A stretch of DNA of 64,000 nucleotides from Escherichia coli (GTDB taxonomy: Bacteria > Pseudomonadota > Gammaproteobacteria > Enterobacterales > Enterobacteriaceae): the NCBI RefSeq assembly GCF_003334355.1, contig NZ_QOWP01000014.1; one strand, written 5' to 3'. Position 1 is the first letter of the stretch. Each line of letters starts with the position of its first letter. The notes beneath the pieces are model-generated. The model was not told where the DNA came from and made no database searches. It was given only the letters and a program-made list of their open reading frames with translations. A program made the translations under genes and the position numbers. Of this stretch, positions 39,720-40,232 are shown one piece after another.

Positions 39720-40232
39720 TTAGCTGAGGCGTTGAGGGCCAGCACGGATGCCTTGCGCCTGGCTTATCCAGACGGGCGTGCTGAATTTTGCTTGTGGGGT
39801 AAAATGCGCATAATCAATGCGATAACCCTTTTCAGACGGCGTGCCTTCCTGGGTCAGCAGCGCGCTGAGCGTATCCAGTAATGCAAGATGTTGCGCCTGA
39901 AGAGGCAAGGATTCTTCAGCAACGGGCAGCGTTTGCGGTGCCATTGCGAAGGAAAGATGACGGATTACCGTGCGAATGGCATGTTGATGCCAGTAATCAA
40001 CGGAATAGTTCGAATTCGGGCGGCGCGTGTTCGCTTCCAGCAAGGCCAATTGACCAAAGTTAACTTTGGCTGAAGGCTCGTGGTTGCGGGTTGTCGCTTT
40101 TGCGGGCGCGTTTGGTTCGGTGGCGTTGCTGAGCGCAGGCAAACCTAAACTCGCCGCAACCATCCCTAATAAGAGATGCGGCCAGAAGTAGCGTTTACCA
40201 AACTGTCGCCAGCGCGTCAGTATTCCACTCAC
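39720..40232 (-). CDS. secM: secretion monitor SecM (translational arrest leader regulating secA)
   Basis: ORF-track 221 aa trimmed to GTG at 40230-40232 giving (M)[22 protein letters not shown] (170 aa); C-terminal arrest motif [17 protein letters not shown] present. Confidence 0.93.
39735..39785 (-). promoter_or_regulatory. secM: SecM ribosome-arrest motif [17 protein letters not shown] (codons 150-166)
   Basis: Arrest peptide read from translation ending at Pro166, four codons before the stop; secA starts 62 bp downstream. Confidence 0.85.

Follow-up and report, generated by a model that had tools for sequence, protein, structure and literature searches.

The secM-secA operon leader of an Escherichia coli contig and its differences from K-12

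Does the open reading frame upstream of secA in a 64,000-nucleotide stretch of Escherichia coli DNA (hereafter the window) encode an intact SecM, and should its departures from the K-12 sequence matter for the control of secA? The original prediction described positions 39720-40232 as a secM-secA attenuation unit. The locus is almost certainly the canonical E. coli secM-secA operon leader, a system that is already known, and none of the results speaks against this reading. Family membership, signal sequence, arrest motif, secA synteny and a helix sequestering the secA Shine-Dalgarno are all present in the sequence, so that the predicted identity of the unit holds, and with it every defining feature of the long-type SecM/secA system that can be assessed from sequence. 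The term attenuation is loose wording, since the mechanism is translational de-repression by a stalled ribosome and not transcription attenuation.

Identity and extent of the secM locus

Translation of the minus strand, which the earlier description had not specified, revealed that positions 39720-40232 correspond to a single coding sequence that starts with GTG at 40232, continues through 170 sense codons and ends with TAA at 39722-39720. This confirmed the predicted leader reading frame with a full arrest motif ending at Pro166, four codons before the stop. The same frame is annotated by RefSeq in near-identical genomes, and the protein was recognized by two curated family models: the SecM equivalog of NCBIfam, NF002799, with 231 bits where 100 are required and an alignment spanning positions 1-168 of the 169 in the profile, and the SecM family of Pfam, PF06558 (6.1e-58). 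The model of short-type SecM, NF038363, scored 26 bits on the window protein, below its cut-off of 45. An 831-bp region containing the gene was 99.9% identical to the annotated lpxC-secM-secA junction of complete E. coli genomes and, together with the NF002799 score, this level of identity rules out a chance match. The locus was found as a single copy in 5425 of the 5426 complete E. coli genomes searched, where it is annotated as "secA translation cis-regulator SecM" and lies between lpxC and secA. A mechanical list of open reading frames extended the gene to a TTG at 40385 (221 amino acids), and this longer version was rejected because K-12 and RefSeq both annotate the GTG at 40232, which is also the revised SecM start cited in the literature (PMC6993859, its reference 28).

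Downstream, the secA ATG at 39658 is the 62nd base after the secM stop, exactly the distance that had been predicted. The interval 39720-40232 is therefore precise as the secM coding sequence but leaves out the spacer and the Shine-Dalgarno arm (39659-39719); the full regulatory unit reaches past 39720 to about 39656.

As a whole, the window is E. coli DNA, being 100% identical over 20.5 kb to the draft contig LYBG01000819.1 (GCA_002190165.1). Over about 43 kb, the closest complete genome, that of strain PSS-12, departs from it at 10 positions. The order lpxC-secM-secA-mutT is shared with K-12, whose SecM (b0097, NP_414639.2; UniProt SECM_ECOLI) shares 168 of 170 residues with the window protein, including the same signal sequence, segment 57-98 and arrest motif, and whose 61-nt spacer with the secA ribosome-binding site is also the same.

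SecM protein and arrest motif

Three functional parts were recognized in the protein. Codons 1-37 (40122-40232, minus strand) are identical to K-12 residues 1-37, which constitute the secretion signal sequence (PMC6993859), and the assignment as a Sec signal is based on this identity. Codons 57-98 (39939-40064, minus strand) correspond to a segment reported to stabilize the arrest from outside the exit tunnel (PMC6993859). Its key residues, given in the same study as D79, Y80, W81, H84, R87, I90, R91 and F95, are all present in the window SecM and were invariant in an alignment of SecM from enterobacteria (19 sequences, about 12 genera).

The third part is the 17-residue arrest sequence, encoded by codons 150-166 (39735-39785, minus strand) and followed by QRLS and the stop. 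The motif is defined as F150xxxxWIxxxxGIRAGP166, and in the stalled ribosome Gly165-tRNA occupies the P site and Pro166-tRNA the A site (PMC10987492, PMC10951299); in the window the corresponding codons lie at 39738-39740 (Gly165) and 39735-39737 (Pro166), both on the minus strand. The sequence is exact at residues 150-166, in agreement with the original prediction that no substitution falls within the motif, and F150, W155, I156 and G161-P166 were invariant among the 19 homologues. The nascent chains of PDB entries 9vvi, 8qoa and 3jbv carry the identical arrest sequence. Residues 1-165 of the window protein equal the SecM chain of the stalled-ribosome structures 9vvi/9xwo except at residue 38, and the chains of 8qoa and 3jbv, which are shorter, correspond to the C-terminal part of SecM.

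The secM-secA junction and the predicted Shine-Dalgarno helix

The spacer between the two genes (39659-39719, minus strand) measures 61 nt and is identical to that of K-12, where the same spacing (108217 to 108279) is found, as it is in eight other genera. It leads into the regulated gene, secA, with 901 codons (36953-39658, minus strand) according to the list of open reading frames and the RefSeq annotation of near-identical genomes. Folding of the junction RNA had been proposed as a check, and minimum free energy structures of 161-211 nt did pair positions 39736-39723 with 39680-39667, including the Shine-Dalgarno GAG. The 5' arm of this predicted helix (39723-39736, minus strand) comprises secM nt 497-510 in codons 166-170, including the S170 codon at 39723-39725, while the 3' arm (39667-39680, minus strand) extends from -22 to -9 relative to the secA ATG and contains the GAG (39667-39669) at positions -11 to -9. 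The junction was more stable than expected from shuffled sequences (z = -2.5; 1 of 200 shuffles as stable), and the regulatory RNA departs at a single base, G509, from the K-12 sequence on which experiments have been done. No RNA family was matched in a scan of positions 39000-41000 against Rfam (E <= 1), where this leader has no curated RNA model.

Conservation of the helix was evaluated on ten aligned junctions (the window, K-12, C. koseri, C. sedlakii, S. enterica, Intestinirhabdus, Raoultella, Enterobacter, Yokenella and Kosakonia). The E. coli helix was paired in 93% of the cells of this alignment, compared with 30-56% in slid controls. A single compensatory pair was detected, and since 81-89 of 500 shuffles do as well, covariation was not significant among these ten sequences, which we attribute to both arms of the helix being nearly invariant. 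In the RNAalifold consensus the three Shine-Dalgarno pairs were lost, owing to variation at the third position of codon 166 (Pro).

The position of the helix relative to the stalled ribosome was also examined. The P-site codon begins at nt 493 and the 5' arm thus occupies positions +4 to +17, inside the mRNA channel of the stalled ribosome or at its edge. In the free RNA, the GAG bases were unpaired with a predicted probability of 0.001-0.04. When only the RNA 3' of the stalled ribosome was folded, these values became 0.68 for G-11 and 0.93 for A-10, with G-9 staying paired (0.05). When the footprint was instead masked in a fold of the whole RNA, the Shine-Dalgarno region re-paired with secM nt 441-460, leaving the GAG 3-41% unpaired. 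Both models are crude, and the exposure of the Shine-Dalgarno predicted in silico should be read qualitatively only. The replacement pairing across the ribosome, which joins 39773-39792 to the secA Shine-Dalgarno and start region at 39654-39676 (minus strand), is probably an artefact because the model ignores the bulk of the ribosome and any trailing ribosomes; were it real, nt 441-460, which lie upstream of the stall site, could offer the Shine-Dalgarno a second partner for sequestration.

Differences from K-12

The secM genes of the window and MG1655 differ at six nucleotides, four of them synonymous and two changing an amino acid. Direct comparison with MG1655 established that the two differences noted beforehand, at NATEP and at the terminal QRLS, are real and are the sole amino-acid changes (A38T and T170S, respectively). 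Between lpxC and secM the window departs from K-12 by four further substitutions, and secA codon 5 carries one synonymous substitution (window 39644; TTA instead of TTG, both of which occur in other genera). At secA codon 874 (window 37037) it has ACT where PSS-12 has ACC, which is likewise synonymous. Allele WP_000014320.1 (the SECM_ECO45 type with the QRLS end), which is common in E. coli and carried by PSS-12, differs from the window protein at residue 38 only, owing to one G to A substitution (window 40121).

Codon 38 (40119-40121, minus strand) reads ACC (Thr) in place of the GCC (Ala) of K-12 and encodes the first residue past the signal sequence. The window 61-mer around this codon had no exact match among 5426 complete E. 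coli genomes. The exact 170-residue protein was nonetheless found on 16 contigs of draft E. coli assemblies, among them contigs L012-L014 (A38T at 10112), in which the same protein is encoded by secM DNA with 7-8 synonymous differences from the window and flanked by sequences that differ from it by about 1.5%. The equivalent 61-mer of this second lineage likewise had no exact match in the 5426 complete genomes. These comparisons indicate that A38T is present in at least two E. coli secM backgrounds, and would have either arisen twice or moved between lineages. Sequencing error was considered as a source of A38T and rejected, since several assemblies, with 16 contigs between them, encode the exact protein, and do so in two synonymous backgrounds. 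At the aligned position, Thr was observed in Yokenella, Phytobacter, Kosakonia and one further Enterobacteriaceae strain, and His in Raoultella.

T170S results from a C to G change at window 39724, giving the codon AGC where K-12 has ACC. Ser170 was present in 18 of the 19 enterobacterial SecM sequences, from genera that include Escherichia, Citrobacter, Salmonella, Enterobacter, Raoultella, Yokenella, Phytobacter and Kosakonia, among others. The AGC codon itself was kept in nine of the ten aligned secM DNA sequences, with ACC in K-12 only, and 2293 of 5424 complete E. coli genomes contained an exact match to the 61-mer with the S170 codon. On the basis of these three distributions, Thr170 of K-12 is the derived state; QRLS is the majority and ancestral terminus, and QRLT of K-12 is the variant. 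The AGC codon, which is conserved across Enterobacteriaceae, also extends the predicted regulatory helix by two base pairs not formed in K-12, G509 with C-21 and C510 with G-22.

The original prediction suggested that both variants be checked against arrest efficiency. They are real variants, but neither is placed to affect arrest through the peptide. Residue 38 belongs to a stretch (38-56) whose deletion left the arrest lifetime unaltered in vitro (PMC6993859), and residue 170 lies beyond the stall point, so that it is still untranslated when the ribosome arrests. Judging from these positions, neither A38T nor T170S should alter arrest through the peptide, and the window allele (A38T with S170) is expected to behave as wild type.

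Alternative readings of the helix and of the variants

Two alternatives to this reading concern the helix. The Shine-Dalgarno might be held mainly in another register, in which the second CUCAG (nt 505-509) pairs with UUGAG next to a local hairpin, CUCCGC-AAC-GCGGGG (39675-39689, minus strand), which would form at the expense of the inner part of the long helix. This register is as well conserved as the long helix (95.5% of cells paired) and is used in the minimum free energy structure of Kosakonia, but in the window it reaches -7.0 kcal/mol against -15.4 kcal/mol for the long helix, and we regard it as highly improbable there. The regulatory logic would also be unchanged by it, because its 5' arm too falls within or at the edge of the footprint of the stalled ribosome. 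The same hairpin bears on the effect of codon 170. The AGC codon lowers the predicted energy of the local helix to -15.4 kcal/mol, from -13.6 kcal/mol with the ACC of K-12, and that of the ensemble to -54.7 from -53.6 kcal/mol; given also its conservation, it could be argued that S170 lengthens the sequestering helix and thereby gives lower basal translation or higher inducibility of secA than in K-12. However, the Shine-Dalgarno was predicted to be unpaired with a probability of about 0.001-0.009 for both alleles, and in the minimum free energy structure of the K-12 allele the freed bases form the local hairpin instead, with little net change. Moreover, the frequency of AGC among complete genomes would make any such difference a peculiarity of K-12 and not of the window. 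A retuning of secA by codon 170 is thus unlikely.

The remaining alternative concerns residue 38. As the +1 residue of the signal-peptidase site, Thr38 might alter the targeting or cleavage of SecM, or the timing of arrest release, and so change the regulation of secA. Both its rarity (16 contigs and not one exact 61-mer in the complete genomes) and its location beside the signal sequence, a known determinant of arrest release (PMC6993859), are compatible with such an effect. Against it stand the in vitro result for residues 38-56, the Thr or His found at this position in other genera, the unchanged residues at -3 to -1 (S-N-A) and the occurrence of A38T in two synonymous backgrounds, which suggests that it is tolerated. 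We therefore give this effect very little credence. Only slightly less doubtful, and still very unlikely, is the composite reading in which A38T subtly alters processing or arrest-release timing while S170/T170 separately tunes the stability of the sequestering helix; under such tuning, K-12, the reference of the cited experiments, would be a weaker-helix outlier. A38T is instead probably a rare, neutral allele. Being recurrent at the signal-peptide boundary, it could serve as a natural test of how far residue 38 tolerates change.

Flanking DNA

Additional features were observed around the locus. Just past the lpxC stop, positions 40384-40436 (minus strand) contain a hairpin with the outer stem CGACUGG/CCAGUCG, an inner stem of 7 bp and nine U's after it, which folds at -30.3 kcal/mol (z = -5.96) and looks like an intrinsic terminator for lpxC. 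If it is one, as predicted, secM-secA would depend on a separate promoter within the next 150 nt or so. The promoter scan of 39600-40520 returned one promoter-like site, against 1.0 expected, which overlaps the secA start, and no secM promoter was found. In the same interval the terminator scan yielded two terminator-like sites on the plus strand inside the secM coding sequence, against 1.5 expected, so that both scans stayed at chance level. The hairpin past lpxC was missed by this consensus scan because its outer stem encloses far more than the loop limit of 3-8 bases.

Further away, the first 158 positions of the window are the end of an IS10/ISVsa5 element (IS4 family) and match the copies on plasmids that carry Tn10, for example R100, with 100% identity. 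Homology to PSS-12 starts at base 159, inside rpnC (yadD). Either rpnC appears to be interrupted by IS10/ISVsa5 in this strain, or the IS marks a contig end at which the window begins. The mutT-yacG spacer (36289-36494) is about 118 bp longer in the window, contig L011 and PSS-12 than in contigs L012 and L013. BLAST alignments join with an overlap at this interval, which suggests a repeated sequence, and our guess is that the length difference reflects a polymorphism of REP-type intergenic repeats.

Regulatory model and comparison with known systems

What the sequence analysed here shows is the secM gene and its family membership, the arrest motif and the synteny with secA, as well as the predicted helix and where it overlaps the footprint of the stalled ribosome. 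Stalling, its release by pulling and the induction of secA come from the literature on this system, and for the window both the arrest at Gly165/Pro166 and a secretion-responsive induction of secA would follow from its identity with K-12 and with the nascent chains in the PDB. According to this model, SecM would be translated from the GTG at 40232, and residues 1-37 would make it a substrate of the Sec machinery. In the free mRNA, secM nt 497-510 would pair with positions -22 to -9 and bury the Shine-Dalgarno GAG of secA. Once the C-terminal F150xxxxWIxxxxGIRAGP166 has stalled translation, with the P site occupied by Gly165-tRNA and the A site by Pro166-tRNA, the ribosome would cover the 5' arm and free the secA ribosome-binding site, allowing secA to be translated. 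A pull of the translocon on the nascent chain would release the stall, and translation of secA would thus be inversely related to secretion capacity.

The locus is a textbook nascent-peptide "monitoring substrate" that is intact in this strain and matters little beyond its correct annotation. Other substrates that monitor Sec or YidC include VemP, MifM, short-type SecM and the RAPP-like arrest peptides ApdA, ApdP and ApcA (PMC10987492). They follow the same logic, in which an upstream open reading frame combines a localization signal with a C-terminal arrest sequence and, as in SecM, stalling opens up a stem-loop in which the downstream Shine-Dalgarno is hidden (PMC10987492), but they are not homologous to the long-type SecM of the window.
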